Source of the DNA: Candidatus Gottesmanbacteria bacterium RIFCSPLOWO2_01_FULL_43_11b
GTDB taxonomy: Bacteria; Patescibacteriota; Microgenomatia; UBA10105; UBA927
Assembly (NCBI GenBank): GCA_001780985.1
Contig: MFJV01000001.1
Location: forward strand, 517,099 to 581,098
DNA: 64,000 nucleotides
Direction: 5' to 3'
Of this stretch, positions 1 through 62,675 are shown piece after piece. The notes beneath the pieces are model-generated. The model was not told the DNA's origin, did no database searches, and worked only from the letters and a program-made list of their open reading frames with translations. Positions within the stretch are counted from its first letter, which is position 1; every line of letters starts with the position of its first letter. The position numbers were made by a program, and so were the translations under genes.

Positions 1-451
1 ACTATGGTGCCCTTGTGTTTGGTGAATTGCAGTAAGTAGCGCCTTTTTACGTATTCAAGAGGTACCGGGCCGCCACCAAAAGCATCATTTATTTTTTCGA
101 TATCCTTTGCTCCTAAATAATGAGTCTGAATTTTATGCGTGTTGAGTATGCGGTCTATTTTAGCCAAATCCTTTTCGGTGGCAGTGCCACTTGATAATTT
201 TTGGGCCATGTCATTTATCTTTTTATGTTCCCTTTTGAATCCGTCTATTAGGTCTTTTCTCATGTCACGAGGTATAAAACGATAATTGTTACAGTAATTT
301 ATTATTGCAGTATCATCTTTGATATTCACGCGGAGAAATTCTAAAAGACGCTTTTCTGGGTAAATCCGCGCCTTGCTTCCTCTTTGCGTAGGAAAAGCAC
401 CCCCTAGGCGTATAGCAATGGCAGGTTTTATTTTGTCTTGTTTTGTCGGCA
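1..451 (-). CDS. hypothetical protein, 5' part only; the ORF continues beyond the left edge of the window
   Basis: Reverse-strand reading from the ATG at 449-451 is open to position 1 and beyond (MPTKQDKIKPAIAIRLGG...). It is absent from the ORF track because no stop lies inside the window. It is divergent from the HNH gene. No recognisable motif. Confidence 0.4.
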
Positions 452-468
452 TTTTTGTATGAGACTTA

Positions 469-1710
469 TTGTATAATAGAGCGAAAAGACAAGACAATAT
501 GTCTACACGAGACCCAAGTGAGTTTTCTAAAAAAACAATTGAAACCCTCGCAAAGCGAGCAGCTCAGACCTGCTCTAACCCTGATTGCCGTCGTCCCACA
601 AGTGGACCGCATTCTGATAAAGATAAGTCTGTGATTGTGGGGAAAGCAGCACATATAAAAGGTCAGAAAAAAAATCGAAGTGCACGATATGATACCTCAA
701 TGACAGATGAGCAAAGAGGCGATATTTCAAACGGTATATGGCTTTGTGGTGTTTGTCACGACGTCATCGATAGAGATGAAGTAAAGTACACCCCCGAAGT
801 TTTAAGAGCGTGGAGAATAAAACAAGAAGAGGTGATTAGTAAAGCAATGATAAGCTCTTTAGGATTTAGACAAGATGCAGCAGCATCCCTTTCAGCTGTA
901 AAGGCGGATGTATTAGAAGATGAGAATATCAAAAAAGCTATGCAAGCTTGGGCATCAGGAGATATCGTCATAGCGTTTGAATGTTCTCAAAACGCTTACT
1001 ATCATCCAACTAGTCCAGATGTGAAGTTGCAATCAATAATAAATATGGTTTTACTTTCCCAAGACCAAATAAAACGAGTTGAGTATTATGCTTCGCTTTG
1101 TGATGAGGGAATTATTTTGGCGAGCAAAATCAATGATATTTCAACACGGGCTGTATTAAAAGTTCATAAAGCATATTTTTTGCAGCATAGGGCATTTAGT
1201 AATTCTTTGTTAGTTTATCAGGAAACTCAGATACGGAGTATGGTGGGGTACCCCACTATGAGTGATGTCCAATTAAAACAATTGATTGATGCTATACAGT
1301 TGGATACTAAGGAGATTAATGCGCTCACAAATGACGCACAGAAGGATGCCTACGAAAGTAAAAGTTATTCTGCATTGGCACACGTAAAAATGACAGCTGG
1401 CAATACGATTGGCCTTACATATTTCATTATCAAACAATTGGGTCTTGATACAGGACAAACAGAGCATATGACTATCCGCCTATTAAGCGAGGCAAAAGAT
1501 ATATATGAAAAATTGGGGGACAAAGAAGGTATTGGCAATGCCCTACACAACATTGCAAACAACTTACGCTTTTTTGGTGACATACCAAGAGCGAAAGCTC
1601 TAGCCAGTGAGGCGCTTCAAATAGCAAAAGAGACAGGATATAAAGAGCTTGAAGTAAAAGCAGCAGAACTTTTGAAGGACAGGTTAGAGGAAGATTGGAA
1701 GCCAGAATAA
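469..1710 (+). CDS. HNH endonuclease-domain protein with C-terminal TPR-like helical repeats
   Basis: N-terminal HNH signature in the translation: CSNPDC...AAHIKG...NGIWLCGVCHD (Cys pair, His, Asn, CxxCH). The C-terminal ~100 aa has TPR-like repeats (IGNALHNIANNLRFFGD, AKALASEALQIAKETGY). The true start may be the ATG at 499 (MSTRDP...). Confidence 0.6.
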   Translation: MYNRAKRQDNMSTRDPSEFSKKTIETLAKRAAQTCSNPDCRRPTSGPHSDKDKSVIVGKAAHIKGQKKNRSARYDTSMTDEQRGDISNGIWLCGVCHDVIDRDEVKYTPEVLRAWRIKQEEVISKAMISSLGFRQDAAASLSAVKADVLEDENIKKAMQAWASGDIVIAFECSQNAYYHPTSPDVKLQSIINMVLLSQDQIKRVEYYASLCDEGIILASKINDISTRAVLKVHKAYFLQHRAFSNSLLVYQETQIRSMVGYPTMSDVQLKQLIDAIQLDTKEINALTNDAQKDAYESKSYSALAHVKMTAGNTIGLTYFIIKQLGLDTGQTEHMTIRLLSEAKDIYEKLGDKEGIGNALHNIANNLRFFGDIPRAKALASEALQIAKETGYKELEVKAAELLKDRLEEDWKPE

Positions 1711-1714
1711 AAGT

Positions 1715-2518
1715 ATGGAGAATACCACGACAGAACCGGTGAAAAAGTTTATGGTTGAGTACTTTCAGAGTATTGACCTTGGACATTGGGAAAATAAGAT
1801 TAGTAGCACTAGTAGTAAGATACTTACATTAAAAAATCCTAAAAAGAAGTTGTACTACATAACGGATTTTTACCTTTCTTACCTTCAACTGCTCGAGATA
1901 TTTATTATTAACGCTTTAATTTTTGCCACGAGAGAGCATGCGTTTTTGGAAAATCTATTTATTAGTAATAAAAAGACTAAAGAAAGAGTAGAAAAGTATT
2001 TTAATAAACAATTTTATACTTGGTTTTTAGATAACTATGTTTTTGGGTTTAAAGAAAAAGAAAAAATAAACAACTTTGAACAAAAATATAAAGACTACCT
2101 CAACGTATTAGAAGAGTGTGTAAATGACTACACAAAAGATTACGATTTCCTTAATGCTTATAAACACGGTTTTAGAGTAAATGCTACAGATAAGGGCGCG
2201 GTTGCTATTAACGGTTATCCATTGCTTAATACCAATACAGTATTTACCTATTTTTCAAAAGAGTTTGACGAAAAGGAAAAAGAAGACATTATTTATAGAA
2301 AAACTATCATGCTTAATTACGAAAGATTTATTATGAAAGCACATTTTCTATTATCCATGTTACAAAATACTCAAAAGGTATTTTTGGGACAAGAGCATAG
2401 ACCGGGTAAACAGTTTAAGTTAGACCACTTTTTTATTGTAGACGAGAAAAAATGGAACAAAAGCTACGGATTTTACAGGCACAAAGAACCTCTTTTCGCA
2501 AAACATAGAAAAATATGA
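1715..2518 (+). CDS. hypothetical protein (second gene of the HNH operon)
   Basis: 267-aa ORF starting 5 nt after the HNH stop. Very AT-rich and Lys/Asn/Phe/Tyr-rich; no recognisable motif. Its stop overlaps the next start (ATGA). Confidence 0.5.
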   Translation: MENTTTEPVKKFMVEYFQSIDLGHWENKISSTSSKILTLKNPKKKLYYITDFYLSYLQLLEIFIINALIFATREHAFLENLFISNKKTKERVEKYFNKQFYTWFLDNYVFGFKEKEKINNFEQKYKDYLNVLEECVNDYTKDYDFLNAYKHGFRVNATDKGAVAINGYPLLNTNTVFTYFSKEFDEKEKEDIIYRKTIMLNYERFIMKAHFLLSMLQNTQKVFLGQEHRPGKQFKLDHFFIVDEKKWNKSYGFYRHKEPLFAKHRKI

Positions 2519-3366
2519 TAGGAACACAAACAATCACTGCAACACACCTGCCAAAGGTAGGAGATAGAGAAGATTTTTCAATGCGTGCAGTTGGACCCGG
2601 GGAAACAGATTATAATTTCCCATTGTCTATGACCGGCACGATATTAGCCATTTGGCAAGAAGACCCTAAACATGCGGCAGAGTATCTAACACGTAATATA
2701 TTAGGCGTTATTGGTACCGCCTCTGCACCGCCTGAGGAAGGTTTTTGGTTTGATAGTTATAATTCAGGAGATACATTAAAAGAAACAGCGGATAAGGTAC
2801 GTAACTACGGCATTAAATCATTTACAAAGGGCAAAATCAGAAACGCCTTTATACGTTTACTTGGTGAAGAACTTTTTGATGAAAAAGAAAAACTCGATAA
2901 GTTCTTTGTAAGTAAATATGGATATGAGTTTTTTCGCTCATTTGAGGATGCTTTTGAGGATAGTCAAGCAATAGAGGATTTGAGCACACCGGCTAAAGAC
3001 AATGCACACTTTTTATATCGCATTTGTATATTATCGGGTTTTATTGACCATATCAATGTTAGGGTCGCTCAGGAGAGTACAAGCGTTTTGAGTCTACAGG
3101 CATTAAAGAATTGGCTAAAAATCAATCTCGATGAGCGACGAGCAAATGATTTAACCAAAACGTTTCAAATGATAAAAAACCTTCGTAAGCAATATCCGAT
3201 ACATGAACACTTTACCATTACAGCAGAAGGACGTCGGGTTGTTCGAGATGAAATAAGAGAGGCAAAAAAGTACTTTAATATAACACCCGACTTAGAAAGA
3301 AGCTGGTTAAATGTTTTTACAGATTTCAAAAATAGTCTTGCTGAAATTAGGAAGACCCTTCAATAG
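2515..3366 (+). CDS. hypothetical protein (third gene of the HNH operon)
   Basis: 283-aa ORF translationally coupled to the previous gene by a 4-nt overlap. No recognisable motif. Confidence 0.5.
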   Translation: MIGTQTITATHLPKVGDREDFSMRAVGPGETDYNFPLSMTGTILAIWQEDPKHAAEYLTRNILGVIGTASAPPEEGFWFDSYNSGDTLKETADKVRNYGIKSFTKGKIRNAFIRLLGEELFDEKEKLDKFFVSKYGYEFFRSFEDAFEDSQAIEDLSTPAKDNAHFLYRICILSGFIDHINVRVAQESTSVLSLQALKNWLKINLDERRANDLTKTFQMIKNLRKQYPIHEHFTITAEGRRVVRDEIREAKKYFNITPDLERSWLNVFTDFKNSLAEIRKTLQ

Positions 3367-3381
3367 ATTATTTATTTCTAT

Positions 3382-3879
3382 TTATTCGCTCCAAAAACTC
3401 ATGCTGTGGATTTCACCCGTATCCTCTTTGATAAGTAAGAAGTAATAATTTTTATCTATTCCCTCAAACACTAGTAAGTTTACTCCGTTGCGAGATACAG
3501 GCTGAGGCAGTAAGTTTTTCCCCGTGTGTTTTCCGTAAGCTTGATTTATTAACTCTATCATCGCGCCGATAACAATAGCATCGTTACGCGGTAGGAACGG
3601 CTGAAACGTGGCTACATATTTCGACGTGCCCTGTTGATACAAGATTGTGTAGTTATAGTCCATGTATACTCCCTGGATTTGTTGGACTTCGCCTGTTGGA
3701 GTCGGCGTTTCTGTTTTCTCTATAGAGGGGGGAGAGACTTCTTTTTGGGCTGTTTTTGTAGAAGCAGTATTGCTACTTACAAGTGCTAAGCCTATTACGC
3801 CGGATAGAAGTGTGACGATAAACAGAGCGAACGCGAGTTTTCCAAACGGCCCCTTATACCACGGGTTAGATTCTTCCAT
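3382..3879 (-). CDS. membrane-anchored hypothetical protein
   Basis: ORF 3382..3951. The likely start is the internal Met (MEESNPWYKGPFGKLAFALFIVTLLSGVIG), followed by one TM helix and a Thr/Pro-rich linker. The start is uncertain. Confidence 0.4.
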   Translation of the reverse strand: MEESNPWYKGPFGKLAFALFIVTLLSGVIGLALVSSNTASTKTAQKEVSPPSIEKTETPTPTGEVQQIQGVYMDYNYTILYQQGTSKYVATFQPFLPRNDAIVIGAMIELINQAYGKHTGKNLLPQPVSRNGVNLLVFEGIDKNYYFLLIKEDTGEIHSMSFWSE

Positions 3880-3995
3880 AAGTTTTGTTGGTGAAATGGT
3901 AACACTTAGTTGGTACAAAGACAAGCAACATATGAAGCTAAAAGGTAACATACAGTAGGTGTTATGAAATAAGACATACCCATACGCTAAAGCAT

Positions 3996-4208
3996 ATGGG
4001 TACAGAGCGAGAGAAAAAACTGGGTAGGCGTATCAAACGATTGAGGAAACAAGCGAAATTGACTCAAGAGGAAATGGCTGAGAAGCTACGTCTAAGCTCC
4101 AAATACATTCAGTTTATAGAAGCCGGAACAAGGATGCCGTCACTAAAAACGATATACAAAGTCGCCCGGGCGCTTGGCGTGAAAGTACAGAAACTATTTC
4201 CCTTTTAG
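3996..4208 (+). CDS. XRE-family helix-turn-helix transcriptional regulator
   Basis: 70 aa, LGRRIKRLRKQAKLTQEEMAEKLRLSSKYIQFIEAGTRMPSLKTIYKVARALGV. This is the classic Cro/C1-type HTH pattern. Confidence 0.8.
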   Translation: MGTEREKKLGRRIKRLRKQAKLTQEEMAEKLRLSSKYIQFIEAGTRMPSLKTIYKVARALGVKVQKLFPF

Positions 4209-4708
4209 GCTGACTGGTTAGGATTAGCTTGTTGATTATCAAGTTCTCGTTTTACCTGCTCTGCTAGATGACTGTAGTCTGTTTTGTCATTTTCTCGCTC
4301 TAAATCATCAAGAAGCTGGCTGATGTCATCCGGTTCCACTTGAGCCACCTCTTGCCGGCTAACAAAAAACGGTTGGCAGCTCCGGTGCTTTTCTGCGAAG
4401 AAGCGAAGGTTACGCCACTCTTCGTCGGTTACTGGCTGTCCAATCTTGACCTTTTCGTCAATGCTAAGGATTAGCCGGTAAAAAATGCTGTTTACTACTT
4501 CGCCCGGATAGCGTTGAAAAGCGTCTATTTTTTCCGAAAACCAGTCTTTTAGCCTGTACTTTTCGTAAATTGCTGACTTGTGCTTGATAAGCAAGGCTTT
4601 CTCTATAGCAAAATAGAGGCTGTTACCGATTTTTAGAAAAGGCGCCATTTCGGTAAGCCATATTTGATATTGTTCGTCAGGATATTCTGGTCTTCCTATA
4701 TCAGTCAT
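4205..4708 (-). CDS. hypothetical protein
   Basis: 167-aa ORF convergent with the XRE gene; the 3' ends overlap by 4 nt. No recognisable motif. Confidence 0.45.
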   Translation of the reverse strand: MTDIGRPEYPDEQYQIWLTEMAPFLKIGNSLYFAIEKALLIKHKSAIYEKYRLKDWFSEKIDAFQRYPGEVVNSIFYRLILSIDEKVKIGQPVTDEEWRNLRFFAEKHRSCQPFFVSRQEVAQVEPDDISQLLDDLERENDKTDYSHLAEQVKRELDNQQANPNQSA

Positions 4709-4867: not shown

Positions 4868-5173
4868 CTATTTATTCTTTTTGACTTCAGTAAGGAGTTC
4901 TTTTTTTACTCGTTTTGCCCGCATTGCGATAACCTTTTCTATATCCTCCCGCGCTTCTTTTTTGAGAAATTCGAGAAGATTGATATCTGTCGGATTATTT
5001 TGGAAATGCGTTAAGAATGTGCCGTGATAATGCTTTGGCAAGTGGCTAAGAATCTCGTCGAGGATATGCGTATGAAGTGTGTCGTCGATAATTTTGAGAA
5101 TGTCTTTTTTATTCCCGACAACCGCAACTATTTCTTCAAAAAATATGAGATTATCGTAAAATCTTTTTGTCAT
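4868..5173 (-). CDS. hypothetical small protein
   Basis: 101-aa ORF. Its start overlaps the stop of the downstream-strand neighbour at 5170-5173. No motif. Confidence 0.4.
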   Translation of the reverse strand: MTKRFYDNLIFFEEIVAVVGNKKDILKIIDDTLHTHILDEILSHLPKHYHGTFLTHFQNNPTDINLLEFLKKEAREDIEKVIAMRAKRVKKELLTEVKKNK

Positions 5174-5934
5174 GTTGGTCCTAACGGGACACTATTTTCG
5201 GGATCATCTACAAAGAATAACAAAACTGCACCTTTTTGCATACCCACATTTAATCCTAAATGTGCCATGAGCTCGGGTGATCCACCGAAATGTTTTCCTG
5301 TCCAGCTTGCTGGTCCCGCGTCACCAATAATTGCAACGATGGACTTTCCGTTTTTCGGATTGACGACGAGAACTTTTCTCCATTTATACCAATCCTTAAG
5401 TTCCGGCTGGCGAGTATTCCAATCAGGTAAGTAGAGTGTTTGCACTGCCACGTAGTATTTTTCTTTTTGAATGAGGTCAGGAGAGAGTTCTATCTTTGAA
5501 TTTGCAAAATACCCCCACGCGCCACGCCCAGGAGTAATACCAGATTTTTGAAATTCGTCGTGTTGGTCGATTGTATCTCCTGGAAATCGGGGAAGATGCT
5601 GCTCAGCTCCCATAAACCCGTAATTTTGATTGAGGCGGTTTCCGTCAAGTTCTGCAACGACATGTATACCAAACATGTTTTTGAGCACCTCAAGGATTTT
5701 TTCCTCAATCTCCGGTATGAGCGGGCCGACAGAGATCGGGAGGAGCGAGGTAAGCGTTGAGGAAGAAAGCGTAACCCGAGACGGAGTTGATAGGAGGGCC
5801 GGGCTCGAAAGGAGGAGGGTTCCGGTTAATGCACCAGTGGTAATCATCCTTGCTGCGTGTGGGTGGTGGGATGCGAGGAGTTTTGCTGCCTGGAGTTGTT
5901 TCTTTTTGAGCCTCGAAAGGAGAGTGGTATCCAT
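5170..5934 (-). CDS. secreted RlpA-like double-psi beta-barrel (DPBB) domain protein
   Basis: N-terminal signal/TM region and a Ser/Thr/Leu-rich linker. The C-terminus (VVNPKNGKSIVAIIGDAGPASWTGKHFGGSPELMAHLGL) resembles the RlpA/3D DPBB motif (V.N..NG.S.V..I.DRGP....IDLS..A...LG). Confidence 0.5.
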   Translation of the reverse strand: MDTTLLSRLKKKQLQAAKLLASHHPHAARMITTGALTGTLLLSSPALLSTPSRVTLSSSTLTSLLPISVGPLIPEIEEKILEVLKNMFGIHVVAELDGNRLNQNYGFMGAEQHLPRFPGDTIDQHDEFQKSGITPGRGAWGYFANSKIELSPDLIQKEKYYVAVQTLYLPDWNTRQPELKDWYKWRKVLVVNPKNGKSIVAIIGDAGPASWTGKHFGGSPELMAHLGLNVGMQKGAVLLFFVDDPENSVPLGPT

Positions 5935-7179: not shown

Positions 7180-7431
7180 GCGGAGCACTATTTACAGTGT
7201 TATAACCTATTTGAAAACTACTCAAATACCTGCACATGATTGCTTCACGACAATTCTTACTCTCAACAATGGCGACCATAACCCCTGAAACATGCAATCT
7301 ATCATTTTTGGACCCGGCTTTTCATCACTTAACGACCAGTTTGTTTTTGTTGTTAAAATTAGTAGCGCCACAACAACAATAACGACCGTGGTCAAGATTA
7401 TTTGAATCAAATTATGTTTATTCATGATTTG

Positions 7432-7514
7432 CGGAGGGTAGAGGACTCGAACCTCTAAGAGCTTACGCTCACAGGTTTTCAAGACCTGCGCAATAGCCGT
7501 TCTGCCAACCCTCC
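7432..7514 (-). tRNA. tRNA-Ser (anticodon TGA)
   Basis: Reverse complement folds as a cloverleaf: acceptor GGAGGGT/ACCCTCC, anticodon stem CAGGT/ACCTG with loop CTTGAAA, long variable arm, T-loop TTCGAGT. Confidence 0.8.
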
Positions 7515-7522
7515 AAAAAAAG

Positions 7523-7607
7523 CGGAGAGTGTGGGAGTCGAACCCACTCACCGTTATTCACGGTGCAGGTTTAGCAAACCTGTGCCTTACCGTCCGGCCC
7601 ACTCTCC
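7523..7607 (-). tRNA. tRNA-Ser (anticodon GCT)
   Basis: Reverse complement: acceptor GGAGAGT/ACTCTCC, anticodon stem CAGGT/ACCTG with loop TTGCTAA, long variable arm, T-loop TTCGACT. Confidence 0.8.
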
Positions 7608-7659
7608 TATAACGTCATTATACCAAAAATAGGCTTTTTCTCTGTGATATACTAGCTCT

Positions 7660-8181
7660 ATGGATACCTCTACCGAAAAAAAGAACGAAGAAAAAAGAGA
7701 AGAGGTGTATCTTGAGTGGAGTTCTCCCTCGCGACTTTTTAAAAAGCGGGATCGTGAGTATTTCACAAATATCGCGGCCATTGTCTTTCTTTTATCGATT
7801 ATTTTAGTGTTTGCTCGGGAATTTGTTCTGATTGCTGCAGTACTTTCGATTGTATTTTTGATTTATGTCCTCTCGACTATTCCCCCGGAGGAGGTCAAAC
7901 ACAGAATTACCAATCTCGGCATTGAAAGCGCCGGCGCATTTTACCGGTGGGAGCAACTCTTTGAATTTTGGTACGAGGAACAGTGGGGTCAAACGCTTTT
8001 GGTGCTCCGCCCGTTCATCGGTCCTCGCGTGATTATACTTTTGGGCGGTAAAGATCGAAATAGTGTGCGTGAATATATTGCCAAACACATACCGTTTCGC
8101 GAGACTCCGCAAAAAACGTGGGTCGATAACGCCGCACGTTGGCTTACGAACAAAATCCCCCTCGAAAAGCCTACGAGCTAA
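7660..8181 (+). CDS. membrane protein, hypothetical
   Basis: 173-aa ORF with two predicted TM helices (IAAIVFLLSIILVFAREFVLIAAVLSIVFLIYVL). No recognisable motif. Confidence 0.45.
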   Translation: MDTSTEKKNEEKREEVYLEWSSPSRLFKKRDREYFTNIAAIVFLLSIILVFAREFVLIAAVLSIVFLIYVLSTIPPEEVKHRITNLGIESAGAFYRWEQLFEFWYEEQWGQTLLVLRPFIGPRVIILLGGKDRNSVREYIAKHIPFRETPQKTWVDNAARWLTNKIPLEKPTS

Positions 8182-8219
8182 TTTCGTTTCCCCGCGGTTC
8201 CAGGGTATAATAGAGCCAC

Positions 8220-8291
8220 GCTCCCGTAGTTTAACGGATAGAATAGGGGTTTGCGGAACCTCTGATCGCAGTTCGATTCTGCGCGGGAGCG
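8220..8291 (+). tRNA. tRNA-Arg (anticodon reads GCG)
   Basis: 72 nt. Acceptor GCTCCCG/CGGGAGC, anticodon stem GGGGT/ACCTC with loop TTGCGGA, T-loop TTCGATT. The sequence is nearly identical in form to the tRNA-Arg(CCG) at 11660. The GCG anticodon is unusual and should be confirmed. Confidence 0.6.
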
Positions 8292-8297
8292 CCCGGT

Positions 8298-8385
8298 GGA
8301 GGGGTGCAGGGAATGGCTATCCGGACAGTCTCGAAAACTGTTGTCTCCGAAAGGGGACTTGTGGGTTCGAGTCCCACCCCCTCCG
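8298..8385 (+). tRNA. tRNA-Ser (anticodon CGA)
   Basis: Acceptor GGAGGGG/CCCCTCC, anticodon stem ACAGT/ACTGT with loop CTCGAAA, long variable arm, T-stem GTGGG/CCCAC. Confidence 0.8.
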
Positions 8386-8395
8386 CTCATTTTTT

Positions 8396-11659: not shown

Positions 11660-11731
11660 GCCCCTGTAGTTTAACGGACAGAATGTCGGTTTCCGGAACC
11701 GATGATACCAGTTCGATTCTGGTCGGGGGCG
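11660..11731 (+). tRNA. tRNA-Arg (anticodon CCG)
   Basis: Acceptor GCCCCTG/CGGGGGC, anticodon stem TCGGT/ACCGA with loop TTCCGGA, T-loop TTCGATT. Confidence 0.8.
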
Positions 11732-60330: not shown

Positions 60331-60897
60331 ATGACAAACGAAAATATGCCAATCTATACAAAAACCGGTGATACCGGCATGACGAGTCTTTTTGGCGGAA
60401 AGCGGGTCCTCAAGTGTGAGGAGCTTGTTGATGTCTACGGCTCGCTTGATGAACTTAACAGTTGGGTGGGGCTGATAGCTTCGCAAATAAAAACAAAAGA
60501 TATCCAAAGATTTCTTTTTTCGATTCAAGAGGATCTCTTTACCATTGGGAGTAATCTCGCCGGTGCGAAAACGGAAATAAAGCAATTGTCGGGTCGTGTT
60601 GCTGAAATGGAAAAAAGAATTGATACCATGGAAAATAAAGCAGGTAAACTCCGTAATTTTATTTTGCCCGGGGGGAGTCAGCTTGCGTCATTTGTACATA
60701 TTGCCCGATCTATTTGCCGCCGCGTCGAACGACAAACGGTAGCGCTCAAACAGAAGGAAGATGTTGACAGTAAAATTCTTATCTATCTTAACCGATTGTC
60801 AGATTTCCTTTTTATGGTTGCTCGACTTATTAATCACGAAGAACATATCGAAGAAGTAGTATGGTCGGGTATTGACCGCGTTGGGAAAAAGAAGTAA
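60331..60897 (+). CDS. cob(I)alamin adenosyltransferase, PduO type
   Basis: N-terminal IYTKTGDTGMTSLFGG and the helical bundle of the PduO/MMAB family. Confidence 0.85.
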   Translation: MTNENMPIYTKTGDTGMTSLFGGKRVLKCEELVDVYGSLDELNSWVGLIASQIKTKDIQRFLFSIQEDLFTIGSNLAGAKTEIKQLSGRVAEMEKRIDTMENKAGKLRNFILPGGSQLASFVHIARSICRRVERQTVALKQKEDVDSKILIYLNRLSDFLFMVARLINHEEHIEEVVWSGIDRVGKKK

Positions 60898-61013
60898 AAC
60901 GTACAATAAGTAGTCAAAAGTTCCGAATCCCGTGAAAATCGGGAACTGTACCGCAACGGTGATAGTCCGGTCGCAGACTTTTGATATTACGCGTATCCTT
61001 CGAGTCAAAGGAG

Positions 61014-62675
61014 ATGCAAAAGCAACTTCTCACTCGAGAAGTTTTTTTATTGGAGAAAAGTATGGCAAAAGGTTGTGTCTGTGAGAAGGAGATATTTAAA
61101 AAATCATACGATGTTTTGTTAAGCAAAACAGCGCTCGTAAACCCCGAGCTTTCAGCACATGAGCTCCGTGTGCAGGTGGCACAAAAATTTCGTCCTCGAT
61201 ACAAACAAGACAAAAATGCTGCGACGCTTGAAAGTTCGGGACTAGAAGTGTACGACGGGCTTGATTTTGAGGTTACTTTGGATGGGAACATTTACTATCC
61301 CGCATATGGGGTAACAAGTGAAGAACTCAACGAAAACACAAGATTATATAACCCTGACCAGTATTCACCCGTGGATCATCAAACATCTCGTTTTGTAGCA
61401 AAAACGCTTGCCGGAGGTGCCGCTTTTGTTGCAACAACTTACGCAAGAGATGGAAACGACAATCGTGATATACACGTGTATTACATTGATAGGGCTACCG
61501 GTAAAGGCAAAACAAAGACGATAAATACCGCAAAGGAGGGAAAACACCACACCTTTGAGGAAATGAACGGCTTAATGCAAAGGTTATTCCCCGAATACGT
61601 GCATACAAAGCCGGTTGAAAAAGTTCTTTTAGTAACAGACAAACCTTTGCCTCAAGAAACCGCATACGTTCGTCCAGATATTTCAGAAAAAGTAGCGACA
61701 GATACGGTACGGACGTTTTCGTATGCCGCAAGGCGCATTCACGCGGACGTGAAACAGGCAGCGATACAAATTTTTGTGCGCTTTGAGCACAAAAAGAAGC
61801 TGCAGAAGATTAGTGACGAATCCGTGTCGCAACAACTCAGGAAGAAGGAAGCAGTAAAAATAAAAAAGACAAAAGAAACAACGATTTTTCCCGAGGCGGG
61901 TCGTGCAAAAAAGAAATTAACGAAGGAGCACCAAAAAATAAAAAACTTTCTTATTCCACTTCTCTTTATTGCCGAAGCAGGAATAAATCCAGGGGCAGGA
62001 CTTTGGATAGTAAAAATGTTAAAAAAAGAAAAACTTTTTAAAAACAAAAAACATTTTAAATACGAGATGGCTCAACGGCTGAACAAAAGAGAAAGGAAAA
62101 AACAAAGAATAGAGGCAAAACGAAAGATAAAAGCAAAAGAAAACAACAGAATCAAACTCAAAGAATATAAAAAAGAGAAACGGGCGAAAAAAGGGGAGAG
62201 ACGTATTCATTCTAAGACTCAAGAGCGCAAGAATCTCGTACGCACCATTCGTAAACTTGCGCGTATTTTACGAAATATTTCCTCACCTAGGGTTCACACG
62301 GAGAAAAATTTCAGAGAGCGTATTGAAGAAAAAGAAAAAATTCGATATCGGAAAGAAATTCGAAGAATGCAGAAAGAACATGTTGTACGCTTTGCGTTTG
62401 CATGGGCACTGTGGTTATTAGTACGCCCAAAGACATCAAAAAAGGACTTTCATCTATCGATAGATGAAAGCAAGAAACAAAAAGAGAACATTGTAAGGGT
62501 AAAAGAGTCTACGTACTGGATTCTTTTGGCGGTTATTTGGTATTTAGTGATGATACGGGAACAACGGATGTTCGTGACACAGAAGAAAAAACAGAAAAAG
62601 AAAACAAAAGCATTACCCAAACCAATTCTACCGTTCTCACCCCAACGTGGAATAATATTTGCCTATGCCACATAA
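61014..62675 (+). CDS. hypothetical protein: globular N-terminal domain plus ~250-aa Lys/Arg/Glu-rich region interrupted by three hydrophobic helices
   Basis: The track ORF starts at 60981. The ATG at 61014 is preceded by AAAGGAG. The N-terminal ~270 aa are of normal composition. A K/R/E-dominated low-complexity sequence follows (KRERKKQRIEAKRKIKAKENNRIKLKEYKKEKRAKKGERR) with hydrophobic stretches (FLIPLLFIAEAGINPGAGLWIV; FAFAWALWLLV; YWILLAVIWYLVMI). The coding strand is strongly purine-rich. Confidence 0.5.
   Translation: MQKQLLTREVFLLEKSMAKGCVCEKEIFKKSYDVLLSKTALVNPELSAHELRVQVAQKFRPRYKQDKNAATLESSGLEVYDGLDFEVTLDGNIYYPAYGVTSEELNENTRLYNPDQYSPVDHQTSRFVAKTLAGGAAFVATTYARDGNDNRDIHVYYIDRATGKGKTKTINTAKEGKHHTFEEMNGLMQRLFPEYVHTKPVEKVLLVTDKPLPQETAYVRPDISEKVATDTVRTFSYAARRIHADVKQAAIQIFVRFEHKKKLQKISDESVSQQLRKKEAVKIKKTKETTIFPEAGRAKKKLTKEHQKIKNFLIPLLFIAEAGINPGAGLWIVKMLKKEKLFKNKKHFKYEMAQRLNKRERKKQRIEAKRKIKAKENNRIKLKEYKKEKRAKKGERRIHSKTQERKNLVRTIRKLARILRNISSPRVHTEKNFRERIEEKEKIRYRKEIRRMQKEHVVRFAFAWALWLLVRPKTSKKDFHLSIDESKKQKENIVRVKESTYWILLAVIWYLVMIREQRMFVTQKKKQKKKTKALPKPILPFSPQRGIIFAYAT

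Follow-up and report, generated by a model that had tools for sequence, protein, structure and literature searches.

Three candidate abortive-infection modules, possibly separately mobile, in a small putative defence island of a Candidatus Gottesmanbacteria genome

Introduction

Two described immune effectors, Cap5 and the HNH-APAZ protein of SPARHA, carry an N-terminal His-Me finger nuclease of the same clade with the same H/N/H and zinc-binding cysteine residues, and in both of them this domain becomes active when the sensor drives it to oligomerise (to tetramerise, as described for this HNH clade) and then degrades double-stranded DNA indiscriminately (PMC12738770). In AcaSPARHA, N71 and H80 are the residues whose mutation kills the system (PMC12738770). 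Here we describe a locus where a nuclease of this type is predicted to be joined to a sensor part of another kind. It lies at the beginning of a stretch of 64,000 nucleotides (hereafter the window) from Candidatus Gottesmanbacteria bacterium RIFCSPLOWO2_01_FULL_43_11b (contig MFJV01000001.1, positions 517,099 to 581,098), a genome of the candidate phyla radiation (CPR; Patescibacteria-type), and comprises three adjacent genes, named g1, g2 and g3. The first encodes an HNH nuclease fused to a TPR-like region, the second a protein with a predicted HEPN fold, and the third a two-domain protein with an invariant Rx5H motif. An earlier note on this DNA had read them as one three-gene system; we consider instead, with a probability of about one half, that they form a small defence island of three separately mobile candidate abortive-infection modules.

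The immune repertoire of CPR bacteria is poorly known. HEPN-type nucleases such as PrrC/RloC and HEC-08 are embedded in type I restriction-modification (R-M) or Hma loci. HEC-08 is a validated embedded HEPN defence gene (bioRxiv 10.1101/2024.01.29.577857). A further point of comparison is given by the Avs/STAND NTPases, where an N-terminal nuclease, a central P-loop NTPase (NACHT/NB-ARC) and a C-terminal TPR sensor are combined and the effectors swap on a constant sensor.

Results

The three genes keep different company at other loci

The proposal of a single three-gene system did not survive comparison with related loci, which are cited here by L numbers, and homologous proteins by P numbers. 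The trio occurs in 0 of the 55 related loci examined, and the partners differ at the other loci of each gene. No g1-type HNH, g1-type TPR domain or g3 was found near g2 in 31 metagenomic and 5 further g2 loci, and neither g1 nor g2 was found near the g3 homologues (39-50% identity) of nine genome loci. The closest g3 homologue, 81% identical, belongs to what is apparently the same island of a relative (L017), seen as such because homologues of the window gene 4205-4708 and of the XRE gene are present; its partners are other than those of the window, namely a PF05168 HEPN gene, a 221-aa gene, a 253-aa gene with the motif RNYAVH, and Mrr. Altogether, neither g1 nor g3 was present at any of about 38 g2 loci other than the close g1-g2 pair, and neither g1 nor g2 at any of 10 g3 loci. 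In view of these differing partners, we favour the reading of three independent modules.

Only the g1 and g2 pair recurs, in L015 and in the short contig L016, with the same spacing of 3-4 nt. In L015 the two proteins are 64% and 84% identical to those of the window, no g3 is present, and the flanks differ on both sides, with a resolvase upstream and an XRE gene, a 285-aa gene and a 1082-aa gene downstream. This recurrence supports the main alternative to three modules, that g1 and g2 constitute an obligate two-gene system in which g1 would be the sensor and DNase, g2 a second effector, a regulator or an antitoxin, and g3 an unrelated neighbour. Also on its side, the g1 homologue of L019 is followed by a different protein of 298 aa with a canonical RNxxxxH motif (RNEFIEH), and a HEPN-like partner may recur in this way. 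We nevertheless hold an obligate pair to be rather unlikely. Neither an HNH nor a TPR domain of g1 type turns up near g2 in about 36 of its loci. Behind other g1 homologues the next gene is an unrelated one in L018 (217 aa, with a relative two genes away in L015) and in L055 (107 aa), and in L020 and L053 there is no same-strand gene at all. Both contigs with the pair (64% and 84% identity) belong to close relatives and carry little independent weight.

Around the g1 homologues, XRE genes are adjoining in L015, L018, L019 and L020, and serine recombinases are frequent. The homologue of L018 is part of an element that also carries a large serine recombinase and a Phage_rep_O gene. An unannotated family (L018:7437-8090 and L015:3623-4480, 56% identity) lies directly 3' of the g1 homologue in L018, while in L015 it comes after g2 and the XRE gene and precedes the 1082-aa protein, for which no Pfam or PADLOC match was found.

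Spacing, transcription and base composition

The three open reading frames (ORFs) listed in the earlier note (469-1710, 1715-2518 and 2515-3366) are present at those coordinates, all on the forward strand (Table 1). For g1, ATG 499 is the more likely start than TTG 469, because four homologues start at the equivalent Met and a TATAAT hexamer falls inside the ORF if this is started at TTG; the consensus promoter scan did not report the hexamer, for want of a good -35 element. The 4-nt overlap between g2 and g3 was correctly described, and the gap between g1 and g2, given earlier as 5 nt, is 4 nt (1711-1714). No terminator-like sites were found on the forward strand between g1, g2 and g3, which makes co-transcription plausible, and the three genes are probably transcribed together from one promoter. 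The tight spacing had also been taken as a sign of coupled genes. For this purpose it is uninformative, as short gaps are the norm in this genome: gaps of at most 10 nt separate 25 of the 47 same-strand neighbour pairs of the window (median 6 nt), and 92% of the window is coding. As a general lesson, in a 92%-coding genome short gaps are no evidence of one joint system.

Base composition was compared among the 71 called genes and in 800-bp windows over the 64 kb. Against a mean GC of 0.427, the values are 0.393 for g1, 0.301 for g2 and 0.377 for g3. The statement that g2 and g3 are both far AT-richer than the window thus holds for g2, the lowest-GC gene of the 71 and also the holder of the lowest 800-bp window, and fails for g3, only sixth from the bottom. 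Codon positions 1 and 2 (GC 0.358 and 0.228) account for the extreme value of g2, and Lys, Asn, Phe, Tyr and Ile make up 43.8% of its protein vs 27.2% of the window proteome. At the third codon position (GC3) all three genes are within the six lowest (g1 0.319, g2 0.317, g3 0.299; mean 0.395, standard deviation 0.056). In each of 24 loci the g2 relative has a lower GC than its flanks, by 6.7 points on average and by 21 points in L011/L012, so low GC is a trait of the g2 family.

The 4-nt gap, the 4-nt overlap, the lack of an internal terminator and the low GC3 of all three genes would suit one obligate three-component system, and the families of g2 and g3 both adjoin a common family, X, elsewhere (see below). 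Such a system is nonetheless very improbable, given that the trio is missing from all 55 loci, that the 81% identical g3 homologue has other partners, that the pair of L015 stands without g3, and that tight spacing is usual in this genome.

g1 joins a Cap5/SPARHA-type HNH domain to a TPR-like region

The g1 protein comprises an HNH domain (about aa 1-125), a variable helical middle (126-300) and a conserved TPR-like end (301-403). The HNH motif claimed earlier proved genuine, with the catalytic and zinc residues C25, C30, H52, N78, C83, C86 and H87 kept in 11 of 11 HNH-bearing homologues. The catalytic H52, N78 and H87 align with H46, N71 and H80 of SPARHA 9om4, and C25/C30 (spaced Cx4C) together with C83/C86 constitute the structural zinc site, conserved in the same 11. 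PADLOC models match g1 over residues 18-131, counted from TTG 469; the best match is PDC-M68A (E=1.2e-26), and others are SAVED_HNH (Cap5; E=4.8e-15), several models of endonuclease effectors of the cyclic oligonucleotide-based antiphage signalling system (CBASS; E=5.1e-14 to 2e-5) and the N-domain of Shedu SduA (E=7e-8). In the Protein Data Bank (PDB), a profile of 13 g1 homologues matches the SPARHA HNH-APAZ effector 9om4 (E=1e-12) and also the Cap5 structures 7rwm (3.8e-6), 8ysq, 7rwk and 8fm1, the N-terminal segment of g1 aligning from profile position 16. By sequence, g1 begins with an HNH DNase of Cap5/SPARHA type in which no catalytic or zinc ligand is missing. A homing endonuclease was considered as another identity of this HNH and ruled out by its membership of the Cap5/SPARHA/Shedu-N clade; it is also disfavoured by the fusion to a conserved non-DNA-binding domain that takes swapped nuclease heads.

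The C-terminal 270 residues of g1 are helical. The TPR-like character attributed earlier to this part is supported, but weakly, and by sequence it concerns only about the last 100 residues: these match TPR_12 with E=4.7e-6 and 27.1 bits, under the gathering score of 30.1 bits, and TPR chains of LGN/Pins match the same end in the PDB profile search (E=5e-7 to 1e-4). LHNLANNLRFFG is an invariant motif of the C-terminal region among homologues. The middle part (aa 126-300) is the most variable, with 51% identity to the L015 homologue where the domains on either side reach 70-76%. The C-terminal domain lies outside all PADLOC models. We also considered an RRNPP/AimR-type HTH-TPR quorum regulator, which was ruled out for the window g1: it has no HTH, and the gene 3' of g1 encodes the 267-aa HEPN-fold protein, not a small signalling peptide. 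An extra N-terminal winged helix-turn-helix (wHTH) of LexA type (LexA_DNA_bind) precedes the HNH in the homologues P0095, P0096, P0098 and P0100 (e.g. L018:6001-7440).

The proteins P0106 and P0107 match g1 over the C-terminal domain only and have a different N-terminal domain. It shares 34% identity (E=1e-20) with a 291-aa protein encoded directly 3' of the g3 homologue in L007, with a 4-nt overlap. The N-terminus of this 291-aa protein matches the nuclease domain of Lamassu LmuA (9.6e-7) and, weakly, that of Avs2 (E=0.0056). An exhaustive profile search with the g1 C-terminal domain returned many generic multi-TPR proteins among its matches. In about 40 representatives of 350-490 aa, a single stretch at the C-terminus covers most of the domain. 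The P0106-type N-domain heads about 27 of these by BLAST, and the LmuA model is matched directly in 9 of 39 by hidden Markov model; one carries a g1-type HNH, and DUF4062, Mrr_cat and a PF01844 HNH occur in one member each. Nuclease heads swapped on a constant non-catalytic domain are a pattern seen in immune sensors, and from this pattern we infer that the g1 family acts as an immune sensor-effector.

Housekeeping or non-conflict roles, for example an HNH in DNA repair or a TPR as protein-protein scaffold, deserve mention as HNH and TPR domains are each common in housekeeping proteins. We find them scarcely credible here. The HNH of g1 belongs to a clade of immune effectors (Cap5, SPARHA, Shedu N-domain), no NCBIfam housekeeping family was matched, and the patchy distribution, variable neighbours, atypical composition and embedding in R-M, CBASS and Gabija loci speak against such roles.

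Comparison of g1 with named systems

The earlier note had found no named system that fits this locus, and our searches agree: among g1-g3, PADLOC models are matched by the HNH domain of g1 only, and the ATPase partners of Septu (PtuA), Zorya (ZorA-D) and Gabija (GajA) were not found by PADLOC in the six proteins encoded at 469-4708. Unlike Cap5 and SPARHA, g1 has a sensor part that is TPR-like and helical, not SAVED or APAZ. As regards CBASS, no CD-NTase, SMODS or SAVED match was obtained with Pfam and PADLOC in g1-g3 or their neighbours. As regards SPARHA, the 9om4 match covers residues 6-118 of 435 only and no Argonaute-like gene is adjacent. The match to PADLOC PDC-M68 A extends over profile positions 4-116 of 253, that is, over the HNH only, and the C-terminal parts differ; no PDC-M68 model matches any of the five neighbouring proteins scanned, and no literature was found under that name. 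In most relatives of the g1 C-terminal domain the N-domain matches LmuA of Lamassu, whose N-domain is a Cap4-type nuclease; unlike Lamassu, the window g1 bears an HNH and has no SMC-type LmuB/LmuC partners. With Avs/STAND NTPases g1 shares the order of nuclease and repeats and the exchange of effectors. Unlike them it has only about 400 aa, and no NTPase or P-loop family was matched in Pfam, NCBIfam or PADLOC. By analogy, g1 could be described as Cap5/SPARHA-like at its effector end and Avs-like in its architectural logic.

g2 has a predicted HEPN fold and g3 an invariant Rx5H motif

The earlier note had called g2 and g3 unrecognisable. This is correct as far as library models are concerned: neither protein gave anything significant in Pfam, NCBIfam, PHROGs or PADLOC (the only NCBIfam and PHROGs matches of the two being non-significant), 16 members of the g2 family and the alignment members of g3 likewise had no significant match in Pfam, and neither profile matched PDB sequences. 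It does not extend to fold and motif, with a predicted HEPN fold in g2 and an invariant Rx5H in g3.

The AlphaFold model of g2 is confident (predicted local distance difference test, pLDDT, 88.9; predicted template modelling score, pTM, 0.87) and displays a four-helix up-down bundle of HEPN type. The g2 family has the invariant motif L146-N-A-Y-K-H151-G-x-R154 (LNAYKHGxR). The canonical HEPN Rx4-6H is not found in it, Leu standing at the Arg position and the invariant R154 three residues past the His, and another catalytic arrangement is possible from this sequence. According to the model, then, g2 is a member of a HEPN-fold family that departs from the canonical catalytic motif. It resembles PrrC/RloC and HEC-08 in its HEPN type and its embedded loci, with relatives located between hsdM and hsdS. 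Unlike them, it has no similarity to Pfam or PADLOC HEPN families, lacks the canonical Arg and contains a beta-hairpin insertion, and unlike the HEPN genes embedded in R-M loci, the window g2 is outside any R-M operon. Unlike HEPN/MNT and other HEPN toxins (SO_3166, 5yep; 7ae2), no MNT antitoxin partner is present at the locus, and g2 and g3, which have extra domains, reach about double the size of such toxins.

The g3 family counts at least 75 homologue clusters at 90% identity, with many members in Microgenomates, WWE3, Daviesbacteria, Woesebacteria and Saccharibacteria and some in metagenome-assembled genomes of Acidimicrobiia and Acidobacteria. Its invariant residues include GDR 16-18, GTA 67-69, F79-D80-x-x-N83, R224, Q226, P228 and H230, and FWFDSYNS is a further motif. 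R224-x5-H230 (LRKQYPIHE), which corresponds to the HEPN Rx4-6H, is invariant in 22 of 22 sequences. The structure model of g3 is good per domain (pLDDT 86.6, pTM 0.60), and Foldseek found no match for it in PDB. Alignment of the g2 and g3 profiles with hhalign detected no relationship, and hence the two are not paralogues.

Defence and mobile-element neighbourhoods

The defence-type surroundings suggested earlier were borne out, in that all three gene families recur in defence or mobile-element neighbourhoods. Relatives of g2 were found in more than 40 loci. In L029, L033, L041, L043 and L044 they lie between hsdM and hsdS, by RhuM or DUF3800 (hsdM of L033 by eye). In L035, L036, L042, L048 and L049 they follow directly after an operon of LexA, a CD-NTase-like protein and Cap15. 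In L036 (2585-8249) and L048 this operon is followed without gaps by the g2 homologue, family X (556 aa) and DUF5677; in L035, L042 and L049 the contig stops or diverges, either past the g2 homologue or inside X, and in L023 a g2 relative lies directly 5' of DUF5677. The operon itself encodes a LexA with S24 peptidase and LexA_DNA_bind, a 300-aa nucleotidyltransferase with a weak NTP_transf_2 match and a Cap15 cyclic-dinucleotide receptor, and looks like a minimal CBASS. In L011/L012 (4431-6759) a g2 homologue with a GC of 0.324 vs 0.532 for the contig lies 197 nt downstream of the gene for an RVT_1 reverse transcriptase (457 aa), an arrangement that resembles a split version of AbiA (reverse transcriptase and HEPN).

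With respect to g3, GajA-like and GajB-like genes (Gabija) lie directly upstream of its homologue in L007 (3652-8700), and the order in L009 is HsdM, HsdS, g3 homologue and family X. In L003 and L006 g3 homologues lie by serine recombinases or insertion sequence (IS) elements, as seen by eye, and others are alone. Family X comprises proteins of about 480-556 aa that have zinc-ribbon-like segments and match no Pfam family significantly. It adjoins relatives of both g2 and g3 and is not in the window; it may be a shared partner of the two families. Through this common neighbour the g2 and g3 families fall into one neighbourhood network, though they are never adjacent elsewhere. Additionally, genes with HEPN-type motifs (RNRLVH, RNYAVH, RNEFIEH and RCGLAH) and no Pfam family occur directly after g3 or g1 homologues, and HEPN-like partners recur around the families of g1 and g3.

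The same neighbourhoods give room to a different function, that of addiction (toxin-antitoxin-like) or competition cargo stabilising an integrative mobile element. Serine recombinases, Phage_rep_O and XRE genes beside g1 homologues (L015, L018, L020) point in this direction, as do the recombinases or IS elements, noted by eye, that flank g3 homologues in L003 and L006, and the LexA-type wHTH on some g1 homologues would suit autoregulation. However, the visible part of the window island, cut at its left edge, contains no recombinase, and the presence of g2 and g3 relatives inside chromosomal R-M, CBASS and Gabija loci points to immunity. Cargo of this kind seems to us improbable as the explanation of the locus, fits much of the evidence, and is compatible with a defence role, the two not being mutually exclusive.

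Surroundings in the window

The divergent gene at the window edge and the XRE gene claimed by the earlier note are both present (Table 1). The edge ORF matched nothing in the phage collection and no Pfam family significantly (best E=0.0079, below cut-off), and no homologue of it was found in L015, which carries g1 and g2. The convergent gene that follows g3 belongs to no family in Pfam, PADLOC, NCBIfam or PHROGs. Two overlapping genes on the minus strand (4868-5173 and 5170-5934), placed between the island and comF, gave nothing significant in Pfam, NCBIfam or PHROGs, and the first of them has a second-position GC of only 0.196. A cluster of four tRNA genes (Ser-TGA, Ser-GCT, Arg-GCG and Ser-CGA) is found at 7431-8386, with further tRNA genes at 11660, 12666 and 21210. 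The cluster was considered as the integration site of the island and rejected, as it lies 2.7 kb past the last island-like gene; attachment-site (att) repeats were not searched for. At the other end of the window, an adenosylcobalamin (AdoCbl; cobalamin) riboswitch match is located at 60897-61022 on the forward strand (51.3 vs a gathering score of 50 bits).

Table 1. Features of the island in the window, and related genes at other loci, with their coordinates.
Feature	Location	Strand	Basis or remark
Divergent ORF truncated at the window edge, visible part 150 aa	3-452	-	Translation
TATAAT hexamer, 22 nt 5' of ATG 499; possible -10 for g1-g2-g3	472-477	+	Direct reading of the sequence
g1: HNH nuclease and TPR-like fusion, 403 aa from ATG	499-1710	+	ORF scan; mechanical ORF start TTG 469
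g2: 267 aa, HEPN fold (predicted by model) with beta-hairpin insertion	1715-2518	+	ORF scan
g3: 283 aa, two domains, beta-rich N-terminus and helical C-terminus	2515-3366	+	ORF scan
Convergent 189-aa protein, hydrophobic N-terminal segment (by eye)	3382-3951	-	ORF scan
Hairpin with 13-bp stem between the 3382-3951 gene and the XRE gene	3975-4004	terminator-like on -	Overlaps first XRE codons
XRE-family HTH regulator, 70 aa	3996-4208	+	HTH_3 2.2e-17; PADLOC HTH_VI, CapH and C-protein models
167-aa protein, shared island backbone marker	4205-4708	-	Homologue with 57% identity next to that of g3 in L017
Family X	L036:5785-7455		28-47% identity across loci
Family X	L038:2042-3706		28-47% identity across loci
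Family X	L009:4367-5971		28-47% identity across loci
Family X	L004:5543-6973		28-47% identity across loci
HEPN-motif gene	L005:7882-8793		
HEPN-motif gene	L017:4111-4872		
HEPN-motif gene	L019:4702-5598		
HEPN-motif gene	L019:5591-6031		

Discussion

The architecture of this locus follows familiar rules of defence islands, with a sensor-fused nuclease and genes of the HEPN-type abortive-infection kind. If the three genes are separate modules, g1 would be a self-contained sensor-effector whose TPR-like domain holds the nuclease off and binds a phage-derived trigger. Trigger binding would lead the HNH domains to form dimers or tetramers, as in Cap5 and SPARHA, and the oligomer would cut double-stranded DNA indiscriminately, with death or arrest of the infected cell. 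In turn, g2 may be a stand-alone RNase of HEPN type or an RNA-binding toxin acting in the manner of PrrC and HEC-08, and may cooperate with g1, and g3 would be a third independent module, possibly another HEPN-like RNase.

Several observations weigh against three mobile defence modules. The scan of viral contigs with g1 and g3 found no relatives of either family, and among PLSDB plasmids no relatives of g2 or g3 were found and g1 was matched over its HNH domain only, so the mobility of the modules is deduced only from their variable contexts. Neither PADLOC 2.0 nor the literature searched contained a member of the full-length g1, g2 or g3 families. Furthermore, g1 and g2 recur together in two other contigs with different flanks, and g2 may depend on g1 in this lineage, while the sharing of neighbour X by the families of g2 and g3 is compatible with a functional link between them.

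Beyond the window, a wider proposal can be put forward, tentatively and as a single joint statement that we regard as possible and still doubtful. Proteins of the g1 family, concentrated in CPR bacteria, would act as minimal pattern-recognition immune receptors that do without an NTPase, their TPR-like sensor directly gating interchangeable nuclease heads (Cap5-type HNH, LmuA/Cap4-like, Mrr, DUF4062), and g2, g3, X and DUF5677 would form a network of their own, so far undescribed, of HEPN-like genes for abortive infection inserting into R-M, CBASS and Gabija loci.

If these readings are true, a simple TPR-like domain could suffice to control the HNH effector of Cap5 and SPARHA, without a second messenger, an Argonaute or an NTPase, and g1 would bring the number of control platforms of this nuclease to four, in the form of a compact sensor-effector from ultra-small CPR bacteria. 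In the same way, g2 and g3 would represent two unannotated families travelling inside R-M, CBASS and Gabija loci, and their recognition would improve the annotation of defence islands in uncultivated lineages.

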